A stretch of DNA of 64,000 bases, taken from Caldilineae bacterium (lineage in GTDB: Bacteria > Chloroflexota > Anaerolineae > DUEN01). Positions 26,730 to 40,900 of the stretch are shown one piece after another (position 1 is the stretch's first letter; each line of letters starts with the position of its first letter). The notes under the pieces are model-generated. The model was not told where the DNA came from. It saw only the letters and a program-made list of their open reading frames with translations, and did no database searches. Location: NCBI GenBank assembly GCA_011176545.1, contig DUEN01000021.1:8662-72661 (forward strand), written 5' to 3'. The translations under genes were made by a program, and so were the position numbers.

Positions 26730-28079
26730 ATGCCACACATCTCATGGAGGGCAGCTGCGATTCTCTCGTTCATCGCCCTCATCACGTTAGGTTGTACGCA
26801 GCCGGTCCCCCTACTGATCACAACGCCTACTCCCCCCACACCGACACCGGTTCCACCGACCGCTACGCCTTCGGCGCCTGTCGCCACGTCACCTGGCGCC
26901 GATGACGCCTGTATGGAGTGTCACAGAGAGGTGACACCTTCCCTCGTAAGGGACTTCCAGCAGGGGAAGATGTACGAGGTGGGCATCCGTTGTAGCAATT
27001 GTCATGGCTCTGAACACACCAGTGCTGAGGATACTGCCAAGGCTCAGATCCCCACAGCCAAGACATGCGCGACCTGCCACCCGACTCAGGTGACACAGTT
27101 TGAAGCTGGTAAACATGCCCTCGCCTGGGTCGCCATGAACGCCATGCCCACGACTCATATGCAGCCTATGGAGCTGATCCAGGGCAAGAAGGGCTGCGGT
27201 GGCTGTCATAAGATCGGGCTCAAGAGCGAAGAGGAGATTCAGGCGATGCAGGCGGCGGGAGAGACGTACGGCACGGCCTCGTGTGACTCCTGCCACACGC
27301 GACACGCCTTCTCCGTCGCCGAGGCGCGCCAGCCTGAAGCCTGCGCGACCTGCCACATGGGCTTTGATCACCCGCAATGGGAGATGTGGTCAACCTCTAA
27401 GCACGGCGTACGGTTCCTCCTGAAGCGCCAGGGAGTGCTTTCCCCAGAGGTCGCCGCGCCGGCCTGTCAGGATTGCCATATGCAGGATGGCGACCACGAG
27501 GTCCGGACGGCCTGGGGATTCCTGGCCGTGCGCCTGCCGCTGCCGGATGACCCGCAATGGGCAGATGATCGGGTGACGATCCTCAAGGCGCTGGGCGTGC
27601 TGGACCCCGAGGGTAATCCAACGGGCCGACTCGACGCGGTCAAGGCCGCGGACGTGGCGCGCCTGACGGAAGAAGACTGGCAGACAGAACGCGAGAAGAT
27701 GCTCACGGCCTGTAGCCAATGTCACGCCCAAGCATATGCCGAGGCCGAATTGAAGAAGGCTGACGAGATGATCCGGGAGGCTGATCATCTGATGGCGGAG
27801 GCCATCCGGATCGTGGCCGGGCTCTACGAGGACGGGCTGTTGGAGAAGCCGGAGCACTTCTCGTACAACTACCCCGATCTGCTCGCCTTCTACGAAGTCA
27901 ATCACCCCATCGAACAGAAGCTCTTCAAGATGTTCCTGGAATATCGGATGCGCACCTTCCAGGGCGCGTTCCACGCGAATCCGGATTACACCTTCTGGTA
28001 CGGCTGGGCTGAAATGAAAGCGACACTGGCTGAGATCAAAGCCATGGCAGCGGAGTTGAGGGGAGGGGGCGCTCCCTGA
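26730..28079 (+). CDS. HAO-family octaheme cytochrome c lipoprotein
   Basis: Lipobox TLGC; 8 CxxCH; HAO-family block CDSCHTRHAFSVAEARQPEACATCHMGFDHPQWEMWSTSKHG and C-terminal GAFHANPDYTFWYGW; start at ATG 26730 after GGAGG. Confidence 0.85.
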   Translation: MPHISWRAAAILSFIALITLGCTQPVPLLITTPTPPTPTPVPPTATPSAPVATSPGADDACMECHREVTPSLVRDFQQGKMYEVGIRCSNCHGSEHTSAEDTAKAQIPTAKTCATCHPTQVTQFEAGKHALAWVAMNAMPTTHMQPMELIQGKKGCGGCHKIGLKSEEEIQAMQAAGETYGTASCDSCHTRHAFSVAEARQPEACATCHMGFDHPQWEMWSTSKHGVRFLLKRQGVLSPEVAAPACQDCHMQDGDHEVRTAWGFLAVRLPLPDDPQWADDRVTILKALGVLDPEGNPTGRLDAVKAADVARLTEEDWQTEREKMLTACSQCHAQAYAEAELKKADEMIREADHLMAEAIRIVAGLYEDGLLEKPEHFSYNYPDLLAFYEVNHPIEQKLFKMFLEYRMRTFQGAFHANPDYTFWYGWAEMKATLAEIKAMAAELRGGGAP

Positions 28080-28132
28080 CTAAGTAAGCGCCGACATGCT
28101 CCCCACGCTCTGATCTGTTCTCTATCGCCTGA

Positions 28133-28163
28133 GTAGGGGGCACGGTGACGCCGTGCCCCCTGC
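28133..28163. repeat. REP-like palindrome
   Basis: GTAGGGGGCACGGTGACGCCGTGCCCCCTGC. Confidence 0.75.
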
Positions 28164-38343: not shown

Positions 38344-38524
38344 TCGCTGGGATTCAAGGTGATGGCCGAAGCTTGACCTTCTATACTTCCTGAGGCATCT
38401 ATCTAATAGGAGGGACGGGTAGCGGAGGACACCGTCTTCAGCCATCTAAAGGACTACGTTAGGGGTCACCATCTGCATTCTCGGAGGATAAGCCTCAAGT
38501 CTCATCAACAAGGAGGGGAAAAGG

Positions 38525-40900
38525 TTGAACACGATCCTAACCACGCTGAGCTCCAATCGTACATATTTCTTTGTATTCGGTACCATCATCGTCATCGTGG
38601 TCGGATCCCTGCTTTTCGCTGGAGGTGTCACCGTCTGGGAATACACCAACAGCTCTGAGTTCTGCGGGACGACCTGCCACACGATGCCGCCGGAATATAC
38701 CGCCTACAAGATCTCACCCCATGCCCGCGTCCCATGTGTGGATTGTCACCTGGGCATGGAAAGCGTGCTCACCATTGTGCCGCGGAAGGTGAAGGAGGTC
38801 CGGCATGTCCTCTTCGCTCTGACTCAGAACTATGAGACACCTATCTACGTCAAAAGCCTGCGTCCCGCGCGATACACCTGCGAGAAGTGCCATAACCCCG
38901 AAAAGTTCTCCGACGATAGCCTGCGCGTGATCCGACACTACAGCACGGACGAGAAGAATAGCGAGACTCGAATCTATCTCGTGATGAAAACCGGCGGCGG
39001 GACCCGGCGCGAAGGACTGGGCAAGGGCATCCACTGGCATATCGAGAACGAGGTCTGGTATATCGCCACCGACGAGCATAAGCAGAACATCCCTTATGTA
39101 CGTCAGGTGGATGAGAACGGGCAGGTTATCGAGTATTTCGACGTGACAGCCGCTCTGCCGTCCGATTTCGTAGCCAGGAACAGTGATAAACTGCGTCGCA
39201 TGGACTGCATTGATTGTCACAATCGCATCTCTCACACGTTCCGCTCACCCGAGCGGGCCATGGATTGGGTCCTTTCCCGTCGGCTGATCGACAGGAATAT
39301 CCCCTACATCAAGGCAAAAGGGGTTGAGGTGCTCAGTGCGACGTATGAGAGTCACGACGAAGCAGCCGCGGCCATTGAGCGGCTTGAGGAATGGTATCGT
39401 GCCAATTATCCAGAGTGGTATCAGGTCCCCGATAATCAGGCGAAACTGAAAAAGGCTATCGAGGAGCTAAAGCGCATCTACTCGGAAACGGTCTTCCCGG
39501 AAATGGACGTAGGATGGGAGACCCATCCCGATAATATCGGACATCTCGAGTTCCCCGGATGTTTCCGGTGTCATGATGGGAAACACCTCAGCCCCCAGGA
39601 ACAAGCTATCCGACTGGAGTGTAACATCTGTCACTCCATCCCGGAGGTCGTAGGCCCTGGTGATCCTGCACCGGTCATCTCTGTGGAGAAGCCCAACGAG
39701 CCTGATTCGCACAAGGATACCCAATGGCTGGCCCGACACCGATTCGAGTTCGATCAGACTTGCACGGCGTGCCATGATGTGGCCAATCCTGGAGGAGCCG
39801 ATAACTCGAGTTTCTGCTCGAACAGTGCCTGCCATGGTGTCGAATGGAGATATGCGGGGCTGGATGCCCCGGCAATCGCCCAGAAGTTGAAGCCGGCGAA
39901 GGAGAAGGCGCCTATCGGGGTACCCGCACAGGTACCACATCCGGTGGGGCCACGCACGGACTGCGAGATCTGCCACGGGCTTCAGAAGGTACATCCTTAT
40001 CCAGAGAATCACACGCAATTCGATGCAACCCAGTGCACGGGTTGCCATCCGGTTATCCAGGAGGCCCTCATCGCACCCTCGGGGAGCCCAACGCCCGAGG
40101 CAGTTACTGGGCCCGCTCCCATTCCACACCCTCTGGAAGGCCGGGAGGATTGCCTAATCTGCCACGCGGTGGGTAGCGGTGTCAAACCGGCACCGCCAGA
40201 TCACGAGGGGCGCACATCAGATCTATGCCAAGCGTGTCACAAACCAGCGGCGACCCCGACGCCTGCGAGCGGTCGCCCCACCAACACACCGACACCCACA
40301 CCGGCGCAGCCCGTGAGCACGCCGACGCCCCAGGCAACCGTTGGGCCCGCCTCTATCCCCCATCCCCTGGAAGGTCGGGAGGACTGCCTGATCTGTCACG
40401 CCGTGGATAGCGCCGTGAAGCCAGCACCGCCAGATCACGAGGGGCGCACGTCAGATCTATGCCAAGTGTGTCACAAACCAGCGGCGACCCCGACGCCTGC
40501 GAGCGGTCGCCCCACCAACACACCGACACCCACACCGGCGCAGCCCGTGAGCACGCCGACACCTCAGGCAACCGTTGGGCCCGCCTCTATCCCCCATCCC
40601 CTGGAAGGTCGGGAGGACTGCCTGATCTGTCACGCCGTGGATAGCGCCGTGAAGCCAGCGCCCCCCGATCATGAGGGACGAACATCGGATCTGTGCCAGG
40701 CATGCCATGCAGCCGCCCCGACGTCCCAGGCTGGCGAGGAGGAAGTGGCCTCGCCACCAAGTATGCCACAGCACCCTCTAGAGGTTGGGGATGACTGTCT
40801 GCTTTGTCACGCGGTGGATAGTCAGCTCAAGCCCGCGCCTGAGGATCACGAGGGACGCTCCGTGGAGTCGTGTCAGGTGTGCCACAAACCCGAATCGTGA
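38525..40900 (+). CDS. NapC/NirT-family (ImcH-like) membrane quinol oxidoreductase with C-terminal diheme repeats
   Basis: N-terminal TM; TNSSEFCGTTCH, SPHARVPCVDCH, MDCIDCHNR and GCFRCHDG; 16 CxxCH plus CX3CH and CX4CH. Confidence 0.82.
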   Translation: MNTILTTLSSNRTYFFVFGTIIVIVVGSLLFAGGVTVWEYTNSSEFCGTTCHTMPPEYTAYKISPHARVPCVDCHLGMESVLTIVPRKVKEVRHVLFALTQNYETPIYVKSLRPARYTCEKCHNPEKFSDDSLRVIRHYSTDEKNSETRIYLVMKTGGGTRREGLGKGIHWHIENEVWYIATDEHKQNIPYVRQVDENGQVIEYFDVTAALPSDFVARNSDKLRRMDCIDCHNRISHTFRSPERAMDWVLSRRLIDRNIPYIKAKGVEVLSATYESHDEAAAAIERLEEWYRANYPEWYQVPDNQAKLKKAIEELKRIYSETVFPEMDVGWETHPDNIGHLEFPGCFRCHDGKHLSPQEQAIRLECNICHSIPEVVGPGDPAPVISVEKPNEPDSHKDTQWLARHRFEFDQTCTACHDVANPGGADNSSFCSNSACHGVEWRYAGLDAPAIAQKLKPAKEKAPIGVPAQVPHPVGPRTDCEICHGLQKVHPYPENHTQFDATQCTGCHPVIQEALIAPSGSPTPEAVTGPAPIPHPLEGREDCLICHAVGSGVKPAPPDHEGRTSDLCQACHKPAATPTPASGRPTNTPTPTPAQPVSTPTPQATVGPASIPHPLEGREDCLICHAVDSAVKPAPPDHEGRTSDLCQVCHKPAATPTPASGRPTNTPTPTPAQPVSTPTPQATVGPASIPHPLEGREDCLICHAVDSAVKPAPPDHEGRTSDLCQACHAAAPTSQAGEEEVASPPSMPQHPLEVGDDCLLCHAVDSQLKPAPEDHEGRSVESCQVCHKPES
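40108..40710 (+). repeat. 234-bp coding tandem duplication (~2.6 units) of a diheme module plus Pro/Thr linker
   Basis: Units start at ~40108, 40342 and 40576; the alternate-frame ORFs at 40225 and 40459 are near-identical and 234 bp apart. Confidence 0.9.

Follow-up and report, generated by a model that had tools for sequence, protein, structure and literature searches.

Ten co-oriented open reading frames (ORFs) on the plus strand, at positions 26730-40900 of a 64,000-nucleotide stretch of Caldilineae bacterium DNA (hereafter the window; assembly GCA_011176545.1, contig DUEN01000021.1; Chloroflexota, Anaerolineae), combine three haem-rich membrane modules with three predicted stalked lipoproteins, and we favour, with slightly better than even confidence, reading them as a modular, porin-free electron-export (extracellular electron transfer) system of a single-membrane Anaerolineae cell. 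Genes are numbered 1-10 along the locus and their products P1-P10 (Table 1). The export reading draws on how the proteins are built and on their resemblance to ones characterised in monoderm bacteria and in Geobacter. Judged by domain content, the membrane modules, namely a Rieske/cytochrome b complex (P3-P6), a nonahaem c plus cytochrome b pair (P8-P9) and a NapC-type protein (P10), hold the domains needed for electron exchange with the quinone pool, and by analogy the three lipoproteins (P1, P2 and P7) follow the pattern of terminal reductases.

In this scheme, electrons from complex I, encoded 15 kb upstream, would pass into menaquinol, which would be drained by exits of unequal energy yield: a Q cycle, NapC-type oxidation at the outer face and FdnI-type transfer across the membrane. 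Flexible strings of dihaem beads would relay electrons through the wall to the stalked cytochromes, whose stalk lengths would place the haem domains at or past the wall. In the end the electrons would reach Fe(III)/Mn(IV) minerals, humics, electrodes or partner cells, and P1, P2 and P7 would use nitrite or hydroxylamine on the side or in place of these.

Membrane modules and their shared dihaem bead

Recounting the translations gave, from P1 to P10, 8+9+0+0+0+13+8+9+3+16 = 66 CxxCH motifs, together with two atypical motifs in P10, one CX3CH (residue 47) and one CX4CH (residue 431), which agrees with the tally of 66 canonical plus two atypical motifs in ten co-oriented genes given by an earlier, sequence-only reading of this DNA. 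No CxxCK haem motif was found in the ten translated proteins. A six-frame scan of the whole 4.43-Mb genome yielded 11 ORFs with at least three CxxCH, holding 91 motifs together, and seven of these ORFs with 66 of the motifs lie within the 14 kb of the locus. Domains were called at the Pfam cut-offs (27.2 bits for Collagen), and domains above cut-off were obtained for every module, confirming the parts list proposed earlier.

P3-P6 display the features that define bc1/b6f-type complexes: Rieske motifs, a cytochrome b split into b6 and subunit IV, four haem histidines (96/110 and 197/212 of P4), PEWY and an adjacent c-type subunit. With the canonical cluster, histidine and PEWY motifs in place, the Rieske/cytochrome b complex claimed before is well founded. 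The true start of P3 likely lies near 30601, as orthologues align from residue 28. Against NCBIfam models, P4 scored 253.7 bits for cytochrome b6 and 243.1 bits for ExtP, both under the cut-off, and P5 scored 27 bits for ExtQ. P6 appears from its sequence to take the place of cytochrome c1 or f. It runs from a signal peptide through two dihaem beads, a nine-haem core and a helical region to a C-terminal membrane helix. Its core, 30% identical to P8, belongs to a family that occurs across many phyla, one Atlas cluster of which carries the automatic name 'Quinol--cytochrome-c reductase, cytochrome c subunit'; a sequence search of the PDB returned no informative relative (best 0.036). The Rieske-b6-IV-multihaem order is kept in eight of the 41 genomes surveyed for conservation, which comprise the host (G000) and 40 relatives.

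The second module is encoded by two tightly spaced genes, the start codon of P9 falling 2 nucleotides past the P8 stop. All nine CxxCH of P8 and its H318 are invariant across 14 sequences, as are the membrane histidines H20, H62, H76, H170 and H185 of P9. P9 is built from a four-helix core, a fifth helix, a Pro/Thr linker, one dihaem bead and a PSCyt1-like monohaem domain, and its b domain matches FdnI in the PDB (1kqf_C, 4e-8); for P8 the same kind of search gave only an unnamed 'Cytochrome c' (9e-6), which is not informative. When the two proteins were modelled together, the interface score ipSAE was 0.80 in three of three runs, as against 0.01 for the best of three controls; that mark is reached by 58 of 80 solved complexes and by 2 of 110 mismatched pairs, a calibration that is only rough for this pair, which was modelled from our own alignments with haem carried along. 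The runs shared at least 87% of contacts, with a predicted local distance difference test (pLDDT) of at least 83 for the partner, and the C-terminal helix of P8 (326-358) packs on P9 residues 158-187. P8 and P9 are thus modelled as one c+b complex of split CbcA/CbcB architecture. The parallel with CbcL drawn earlier holds for the nine c haems and the FdnI-like b domain and fails for gene structure, which is two genes rather than one fused cbcL.

A fused seven-haem+b protein is encoded elsewhere in the host genome (G000:C1:31741-33990; L043:4741-6990). Of its 749 residues, the N-terminal part bears seven CxxCH and residues 529-702 form a cytochrome b561/FdnI-like domain. This b domain shares 28% identity with its counterpart in P9 (E 6e-14), and the haem domain of P8 resembles the fused protein only marginally (3e-4). 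This protein is a candidate fourth quinol module, possibly a member of the 'cbcB-cbcA fusion' family. A seven-haem gene upstream of P1 in a same-genus locus (L037) is unrelated to it.

In P10, a single hydrophobic segment (about residues 12-40) is followed by C47-x3-C51-H52. This CX3CH next to the helix is conserved without exception in the 36 aligned relatives and occurs in 119 of the 120 listed, and the head (residues 1-470) contains six CxxCH, all of them, like the CX4CH, invariant in the 36 sequences. A CX3CH beside a membrane segment and then six CxxCH is the pattern reported for ImcH in the available part of one study (PMC6295460), and the NapC-type assignment with its ImcH parallel, first drawn from sequence, is therefore supported. 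P10 has one hydrophobic segment only, whereas Geobacter ImcH has three N-terminal helices; one-helix ImcH homologues are reported in Anaerolinea thermophila and Intrasporangium calvum (PMC6295460). Searching the PDB with the head returned NrfH only (2j7a_C, 2.7e-6). Atlas rows of 468-498 residues from Acidobacteriota and Pseudomonadota, with template modelling (TM) scores of 0.74-0.75, are a lead only as regards homology to ImcH. Selenoprotein read-through in P10 orthologues was considered and rejected, the single TGA in the matches being a normal stop.

Outside the membrane, all three modules terminate in a dihaem mini-domain of about 42 residues on Pro/Thr linkers, a shared element that had escaped the earlier note. 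This bead occurs in eight copies, two in P6, one in P9 and five in P10, with nine invariant positions, 33-57% identity between proteins and Pro/Thr-rich linkers between beads. Beads m2, m3 and m4 of P10 are 91-98% identical, and the 234-nucleotide DNA repeat encoding such units points to recent duplication. In the 120 proteins closest to the P10 head, tails contain 2 (34 proteins), 4 (8), 6 (57), 8 (16), 10 (2) or 12 (1) CxxCH, with odd numbers in two; bead number thus changes almost always by whole beads. These even counts match a published remark that haems come and go two at a time in Anaerolineales cytochromes (PMC7399161, in part).

Searching with the bead profile gave 981 cluster representatives at E <= 0.001, of which 490 remain at 1e-10 and 90 at 1e-30; a single protein holds up to 10 copies. 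Of 149 listed proteins that were examined, 70 have at least 80% of their CxxCH inside beads. Two proteins, P0362 and P0374, are almost bead-only: one is a predicted lipoprotein of 407 residues whose six beads are strung on Pro/Thr linkers, the other a 255-residue protein in which a regular expression finds four beads and the profile five stretches. Such proteins suggest free or lipid-anchored 'wires'. No described counterpart of the bead strings was found in the literature searched.

Stalked cytochromes and the host cell

P7 matches OcwA in the PDB (6i5b_A) at 3.4e-21, over P7 residues 60-252 only. For P2, an AlphaFold2 (AF2) model (pLDDT 87.3) has OcwA 6i5b as its best Foldseek match (2e-5), and VIA-align superposes the two with Z 13.9 over 337 residues (root-mean-square deviation 3.8, 25% identity); further fold matches are NrfA (1qdb, Z 12.9; others 12.5 and 11.8), OmhA (6qvm, Z 12.4) and the octahaem nitrite reductase ONR (8rv0, Z 11.5). 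Nine CxxCH are present in 116 of the 120 listed P2 relatives. P7 and P2 therefore match OcwA/OmhA first and do not group with NrfA only. In a partly available study, OcwA reduces iron oxide in vitro and sits on the surface of a monoderm (PMC6703420).

P1 is related to a different branch of the same superfamily. Its PDB matches are 6h5l_A (5e-28), HAO 4fas (4e-26) and HDH 6hif (1e-20), with eight family members between 1e-19 and 5e-28, all at low identity and over partial alignments. A Phe aligns with the cross-link Tyr Y467 of N. europaea HAO, a call that depends on the alignment, since Tyr residues stand two positions to either side. By sequence, P1 belongs to the HAO/HDH/IhOCC octahaem clade and resembles reductive HAO-like enzymes, not the oxidising type; it is likely an N-oxide reductase (of nitrite, hydroxylamine or nitric oxide, NO) and a candidate terminal reductase. 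The host genome encodes a second HAO-family octahaem protein (G000:C189, L046:4605-5882) of 425 residues, 28% identical to P1.

Each of the three begins with a hydrophobic N-terminus ending in ...GC or ...AC ahead of its stalk, which in P1 spans 38 residues (55% Pro+Thr), in P2 53 residues (77% Pro+Thr) and in P7 about 12 G-X-Y triplets. Both features speak for the three lipoprotein multihaems on Pro/Thr or collagen stalks claimed earlier, as a prediction. The collagen stalk of P7 is kept in eight of 10 locus orthologues despite sequence drift, and the two without it are only 30% identical. More widely, 65 of the 120 best listed P7 relatives carry a run of 6-27 G-X-Y triplets ahead of their first haem, all 65 with a lipobox; among the 55 stalkless ones, at least 10 of 30 inspected are N-terminally incomplete and others carry a plain signal peptide.

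The host, a sediment bacterium, is represented by a metagenome-assembled genome (MAG) of 239 contigs, 92.72% complete and 5.64% contaminated. The nearest named P6 records come from Anaerolineae and Anaerolineales MAGs (77% and 69% identity), in keeping with the Chloroflexota host suspected before. Neither Omp85 (PF01103) nor MtrB_PioB (PF11854) had a Pfam match in this 92.7% complete genome, and no barrel family was found among 30 flanking window ORFs scanned with Pfam; the claimed absence of a porin is borne out within that scope, and a diderm porin conduit was rejected. Pfam likewise gave no match in the genome to the haem-copper oxidase COX1 or the NrfA family. An aerobic bc1-to-oxidase chain was rejected, COX1 not having been found, though cytochrome bd is present. 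Haem maturation genes are present, namely ResB adjoining a CcsA-like gene, CcmE and two CcmF-size proteins, and the genome also encodes three cytochrome b genes and seven molybdopterin enzymes. This inventory fits an anaerobic or microaerotolerant single-membrane cell able to mature c-type cytochromes. None of the outcomes that the earlier reading had named as refuting it was encountered.

Other respiratory loci of the host include a pentahaem c beside a 980-residue molybdopterin enzyme (G000:C164, L045:3689-7252) and two further bc-type complexes in a genome where COX1 was not found: b6 plus a subunit IV fused to a dihaem c (G000:C22, L047), and a 519-residue cytochrome b beside a dihaem c (G000:C59, L048). 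MAG contamination could contribute to these.

The locus is well supported as assembled. One contig of a possible source run (X1) spans 25600-40263, and in another sample of the same study (X2) a contig bridges the junction of gene 2 with the Rieske module (29282-30752). The P6/P7 junction is supported by X1, and by X2 up to 27 nucleotides before P7; in runs X3 and X4 no single listed contig crosses the P6/P7 spacer with 31 letters on each side. Runs of two other studies contain 0.72-0.73 of the sampled words of the stretch, and runs X5-X9 only small shares. An assembly chimera was rejected, as one contig covers the island and independent runs contain it.

Conservation, competing readings and gene neighbourhood

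At E <= 1e-40, P10 has matches in 13 of the 41 genomes, P8 in 15, P7 in eight and P1 in four, and clear P6 orthologues number eight. The three quinol modules co-occur in seven (G000, G001, G002, G004, G012, G026 and G027). In two genomes of the same genus, P1-P2-P7-P8-P9-P10 form one uninterrupted run, with the Rieske module placed on a different contig; in the window that module occupies exactly the P2-P7 spacer. G004 has P2-Rieske-...-P10 without P1, G012 holds the modules in divergent orientation, and clustering in differing orders recurs in G004, G012, G011 and a Suakin Deep MAG. P8-P9 and P10 adjoin in at least 10 genomes, and P8-P9 pairs occur in 15 further loci, always beside large secreted multihaems, Caldilineaceae and Acidobacteriota records included. 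The compact unit proposed by the sequence-only reading is therefore not conserved as such, the conserved core being genes 7-8-9(-10). Because same-genus genomes keep the Rieske module elsewhere, independently mobile modules appear to have come together here only recently, and the island is no old operon but a lineage-specific juxtaposition of common modules.

The families themselves are large, uncharacterised and mostly of Chloroflexota. Among 8000 candidates scored, at least 7707 proteins belong with the P10 head, at least 1941 with P2 and at least 4460 with P7, and the organisms named are usually Chloroflexota. One preprint, as far as available, calls the OcwA/OmhA families 'very poorly represented' in its database (10.1101/2022.02.24.481543), so the sizes of the OcwA-like families are new information.

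Several points weigh against export. None of the ten proteins reached the curated cut-off of an NCBIfam model, so no equivalog name can be assigned to them, and Geobacter ImcH, CbcL and CbcBA were compared with P10, P8 and P9 by described motifs and architecture, not by sequence. The AF2 model of the P10 head is poor (mean pLDDT 59.9, predicted TM score 0.48; residues 1-470, 36-row alignment). Transfer from a Rieske cluster to c haems of the bis-His kind, usually of low potential, would be thermodynamically awkward for a Q-cycle branch. Of the three stalked proteins, P7 alone matches the strict lipobox pattern; P1 and P2 fit a looser PROSITE-style pattern, on which their predicted lipoprotein status depends. 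Stalk lengths of about 11-15 nm are estimates from general rise-per-residue values, and their reach through the wall of the host is a prediction. With P1 in four and P7 in eight genomes only, the set is not an obligate unit. The 5.64% contamination is a caveat, and no RNA run is among the listed sequencing runs containing the stretch. Finally, a soluble N-oxide acceptor would fit all three stalked proteins, because the whole OcwA/NrfA/HAO superfamily is described as reducing nitrite or NO in vitro (10.1101/2022.02.24.481543, in part), the distal Asp-His pair of P1 aligns with that of N. europaea HAO, and P2 fits NrfA nearly as well as OcwA (Z 12.9 vs 13.9).

The last point leads to a reading that we regard as rather unlikely: an outer-face chain for soluble nitrogen (or sulfur) oxyanions, respiratory or detoxifying, in which P10 and/or the Rieske complex would oxidise menaquinol, P1, P2 and P7 would reduce nitrite, hydroxylamine or NO, and stalks and beads would merely keep the enzymes mobile near the membrane. 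Besides the P1 and P2 features just named, the Phe of P1 at the Tyr position, as in reductive HAO-like proteins, the likeness of P2 to ONR and the NrfH match of the P10 head all speak for it. P1, P2 or P7 could fill the role of NrfA, which has no Pfam match elsewhere in the genome, and P1 to P7, Rieske complex included, may be one transcription unit, as a promoter-like site precedes P1 and a hairpin follows P7. Nitrite and hydroxylamine are substrates of OcwA too, but its nitrite turnover is very slow, with a kcat of only 1 per minute (PMC6703420, in part). The best matches of P7 and P2 are moreover OcwA and OmhA, not NrfA or ONR, and CxxCK is missing. P1 is the least conserved part of the locus, absent even from the otherwise syntenic G004 island, and stalks of 6-27 triplets and up to 10 beads are hard to justify for a diffusible substrate. 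To our knowledge, nitrite-ammonifying chains also use far fewer than 66 haems. Were this reading true, the locus would reveal that a phylum abundant in nitrogen-rich habitats has a system for ammonification or detoxification that has so far gone unrecognised.

Export could also be reversed, which we judge improbable: the same hardware would draw electrons inwards, the donor being Fe(II), reduced humics, a cathode or a syntrophic partner. P8-P9 would then work like formate dehydrogenase-N, whose FdnI-type b subunit reduces quinone on the inner side: the b haems would reduce menaquinone on the cytoplasmic side in a proton-motive redox loop, and P10 or the Rieske complex would re-oxidise menaquinol toward P1 (N-oxide) or cytochrome bd. 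The FdnI-type b domain of P9 fits such a loop, P8-P9 and P10 adjoin as two loop halves should, and the genome offers candidate sinks in cytochrome bd and the HAO-like protein. As far as the sources go, Fe(II) oxidisers as well as Fe(III) reducers possess members of the CbcL/MtoC/MtrH family (PMC6295460), and the Chloroflexota isolate Ardenticatena maritima gives anodic and cathodic currents (PMC5808234). No Cyc2-type or other iron oxidase was seen, though no search was aimed at them; direction is unreadable from sequence, and the nearby complex I operon is compatible with either direction.

A chance neighbourhood, in which modules of separate pathways share a recombination-prone region without joint function, is very unlikely because the three modules share one specific bead, and further because clustering recurs in differing orders in other genomes and most of the genome's multihaem motifs fall within 14 kb, even though the Rieske module lies on another contig in two same-genus genomes and sits exactly in the P2-P7 spacer here, the hairpins suggest at least two transcription units and an HNH-like ORF splits the G004 island between P7 and P8. 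That ORF (about 199 residues, in the spacer L016:13047-14287) has an HNH-nuclease-like Cys/His pattern and is a possible mobile insertion.

If electron export is the function, a wider scheme comes into view, which we put forward tentatively: a Chloroflexota-wide wiring in which interchangeable quinol oxidase cores would feed one standard bead output, tuned from 1 to at least 10 beads by tandem duplication, while collagen triple helices of 6-27 triplets, anchored by lipid, would fix the height of the OcwA-type terminal reductases above the membrane. The present locus would show every element of this scheme in one place. Rigidly stalked, these reductases would have to be trimeric. The thousands of sequences like P7, P2 and P10 would mark a large unrecognised guild of electroactive Anaerolineae in sediment and subsurface metagenomes, and the OcwA clade would be mainly a Chloroflexota family.

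Table 1. Features of the haem-rich locus, in coordinates of the window.
Feature	Position	Strand	Support and remarks
P1, HAO-family octahaem c lipoprotein (predicted) on Pro/Thr stalk	26730..28079	+	PF13447 101.8 bits; 8 CxxCH
P2, nonahaem c lipoprotein (predicted)	28243..30273	+	(PTPVPPT)n stalk, Ig/PKD-like beta-sandwich region, OcwA-fold haem domain
P3, Rieske 2Fe-2S subunit	30520..31095	+	PF00355 49.4 bits; CTHLGC, CPCH, Tat-like RRGF
P4, cytochrome b6-type (N-terminal half of split cytochrome b)	31201..31956	+	PF00033 192.5 bits
P5, subunit IV (C-terminal half of cytochrome b)	31922..32359	+	PF00032 71.6 bits; Qo-site PEWY at residue 74
P6, 13-haem c subunit of Rieske/b complex	32375..34048	+	13 CxxCH; neighbourhood in 8/41 genomes
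P7, OcwA-like octahaem c lipoprotein on collagen-like stalk	34402..35634	+	Pfam Collagen 28.0 bits; lipobox LAAC
P8, nonahaem c, signal peptide and C-terminal membrane helix	35880..36986	+	9 CxxCH; CbcA-like architecture
P9, FdnI/HydC-type dihaem cytochrome b	36988..38343	+	PF01292 (Ni_hydr_CYTB) 52.6 bits; PF07635 31.9 bits
P10, one-helix protein, NapC/NrfH-like head and five-bead tail	38525..40900	+	PF03264 (Cytochrom_NNT) 45.8 bits
Promoter-like site	26374..26402	+	TTGACA, 17-nucleotide spacer, TAAAAT; upstream of gene 1; 11/12 consensus matches
Terminator-like hairpin, 16-bp stem	35658..35692	+	after P7; consensus scan only
Tandem DNA repeat, 234 nucleotides, 2.5 copies, 91% matches	40108..40698	+	encodes linker-plus-bead units of P10
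Terminator-like hairpin	40986..41015	+	after P10; consensus scan only

The longest ORF of gene 1 begins at a GTG at 26616 and the Met of its signal peptide is at 26730, while position 40900 is the stop of gene 10. Promoter-like sites number nine in the region as against 5.5 +/- 2.3 in shuffles, by consensus match only, and terminator-like hairpins 12 as against 8.3 +/- 3.4; the hairpin after P7 may separate two transcription units. Rfam at gathering thresholds gave no match in the window.

A partial complex I (nuo) operon lies at 1-11280 on the minus strand, about 15 kb upstream of the island, as a quinone-reducing partner; it contains NuoH, NuoG with a full molybdopterin domain (871 residues), fused NuoE/F (624 residues), fused NuoC/D (599 residues) and NuoA. 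It is followed at 11242-14660 (plus strand) by a Fur-family regulator and a ZnuA/ABC/ABC-3 metal-uptake transporter, possibly iron- or zinc-responsive, and at 23051-25615 by an ABC1/UbiB-type kinase, of a family linked to quinone biosynthesis, and the prolipoprotein diacylglyceryl transferase Lgt. Lgt, directly beside the island on the opposite strand, is the enzyme that would lipidate P1, P2 and P7. Downstream of P10 and convergent with it, 41025-45635 (minus strand) encodes a 1536-residue secreted S8 subtilase with PPC, Fn3-like and CBM96/disaggregatase-like domains; farther on lie a Tad/Flp-type pilus cluster (48973-57853, minus strand; CpaF-like ATPase, two TadB/C-like proteins, CpaE-like, RcpC/CpaB-like and TadE/G with VWA) and a Crp/Fnr-family regulator (61048-61716).

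Comparison with known systems

Porin-free Anaerolineales genomes rich in multihaem cytochromes, with possible extracellular electron transfer (PMC7399161), ImcH-like proteins in Chloroflexi (PMC6295460) and 'cbcB-cbcA fusions' in Chloroflexi are already on record in the available parts of the sources. In the literature searched, supplementary tables excluded, 'collagen-like' was not found paired with 'multiheme cytochrome', OcwA appeared with Anaerolineae as an outgroup only, and a Rieske protein with multihaems in Anaerolineae only in Hug 2013, listing cytochromes; the homologue list of PMC6295460 may name an Anaerolinea P10-like protein. Within that scope, four elements were not found and are apparently new: three quinol modules in one locus, as the earlier note had suspected, the shared bead, the collagen-stalked OcwA-like family and the size of the OcwA-like family in Chloroflexota.

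Anaerolineae are among the commonest bacteria of sediments, aquifers, digesters and anode biofilms, their anaerobic respiration is largely obscure, and electron exchange with electrodes is known from a single isolate of the Chloroflexota. The locus offers a parts list for a porin-free route, made up of three quinol exits, a shared bead and OcwA-type reductases on tunable stalks. Confirmation of this route would make it possible to trace electroactive Chloroflexota in metagenomes by marker genes, and the OcwA family would grow by orders of magnitude. Collagen-stalked, bead-tethered cytochromes would then be a new structural principle in extracellular electron transfer.

The outer-membrane barrel partner of Mtr/Pcc porin-cytochrome conduits was not found here (PF11854 and PF01103, 92.7% complete genome). 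Closer in lineage, the bioanode Anaerolineales genomes are likewise from Chloroflexota, with large multihaems and no porin-cytochrome complex (PMC7399161), and Ardenticatena maritima combines surface cytochromes with bidirectional currents, the protein studied there being a seven-haem cytochrome (PMC5808234). The available parts of these two papers do not describe quinol modules, OcwA likeness, stalks or a bead unit for either.

Among octahaem proteins, Kuenenia kustc0458 (6h5l) is a reductive HAO-like protein with eight haems, a distal Asp-His pair and no cross-link Tyr, as in P1, and epsilonproteobacterial Hao is a further one; P1 differs from them as a predicted lipoprotein with a Pro/Thr stalk in a monoderm host. 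For P3-P6, Geobacter Cbc6/ExtMNOPQS likewise joins a Rieske protein, b6 and subunit IV to a membrane-anchored multihaem c that replaces c1 or f, and anammox Rieske/b complexes have HAO-like partners, comparable with P1 in the same cluster. P6 departs from such multihaem subunits with 13 haems including two beads; COX1 was not found in the host, and the link to the HAO-like protein is not conserved.

Geobacter sulfurreducens runs ImcH, CbcL and CbcBA as parallel quinol:cytochrome c modules, an arrangement that the locus resembles by description. P10 and ImcH share a NapC-like head, a CX3CH beside the helix and six CxxCH; P10 adds an invariant CX4CH, undescribed for ImcH, and has one helix and a five-bead tail where the Geobacter protein has three helices. 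CbcA and CbcB correspond to P8 and P9 as a C-terminally anchored multihaem c and a separate four-helix dihaem b (10.1101/2021.04.15.440034, in part), although CbcA has seven haems and P8 nine, the count of CbcL, and P9, unlike CbcB, has a c-haem tail of its own. Geobacter is diderm and keeps its three modules in separate, separately regulated loci, whereas here the CbcBA-like pair and the ImcH-like gene adjoin, in at least 10 genomes. A sigma-54 (BccR-type) activator such as stands beside the CbcBA operon was not found among the 30 flanking window ORFs scanned with Pfam.

A close parallel in envelope and terminal fold is offered by the chains of Thermincola potens (OcwA) and Carboxydothermus ferrireducens (OmhA), which likewise work with a single membrane and no porin. 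Their terminal multihaem fold is alike, as the P7 and P2 matches to OcwA and OmhA indicate, and several upstream quinol-oxidising cytochromes have been proposed there too (PMC7829351, in part). OcwA has nine haems, two of them catalytic and ligated by His only; P7 has eight CxxCH, and P2 nine with an added Ig-like region. In those organisms, which belong to another phylum, the terminal cytochromes are associated with the wall or S-layer, while here they are predicted lipoproteins on collagen or Pro/Thr stalks. The quinol modules differ as well, being here of the Rieske/b6, FdnI-type b and ImcH-patterned kinds, and the bead strings have no counterpart in the literature searched.

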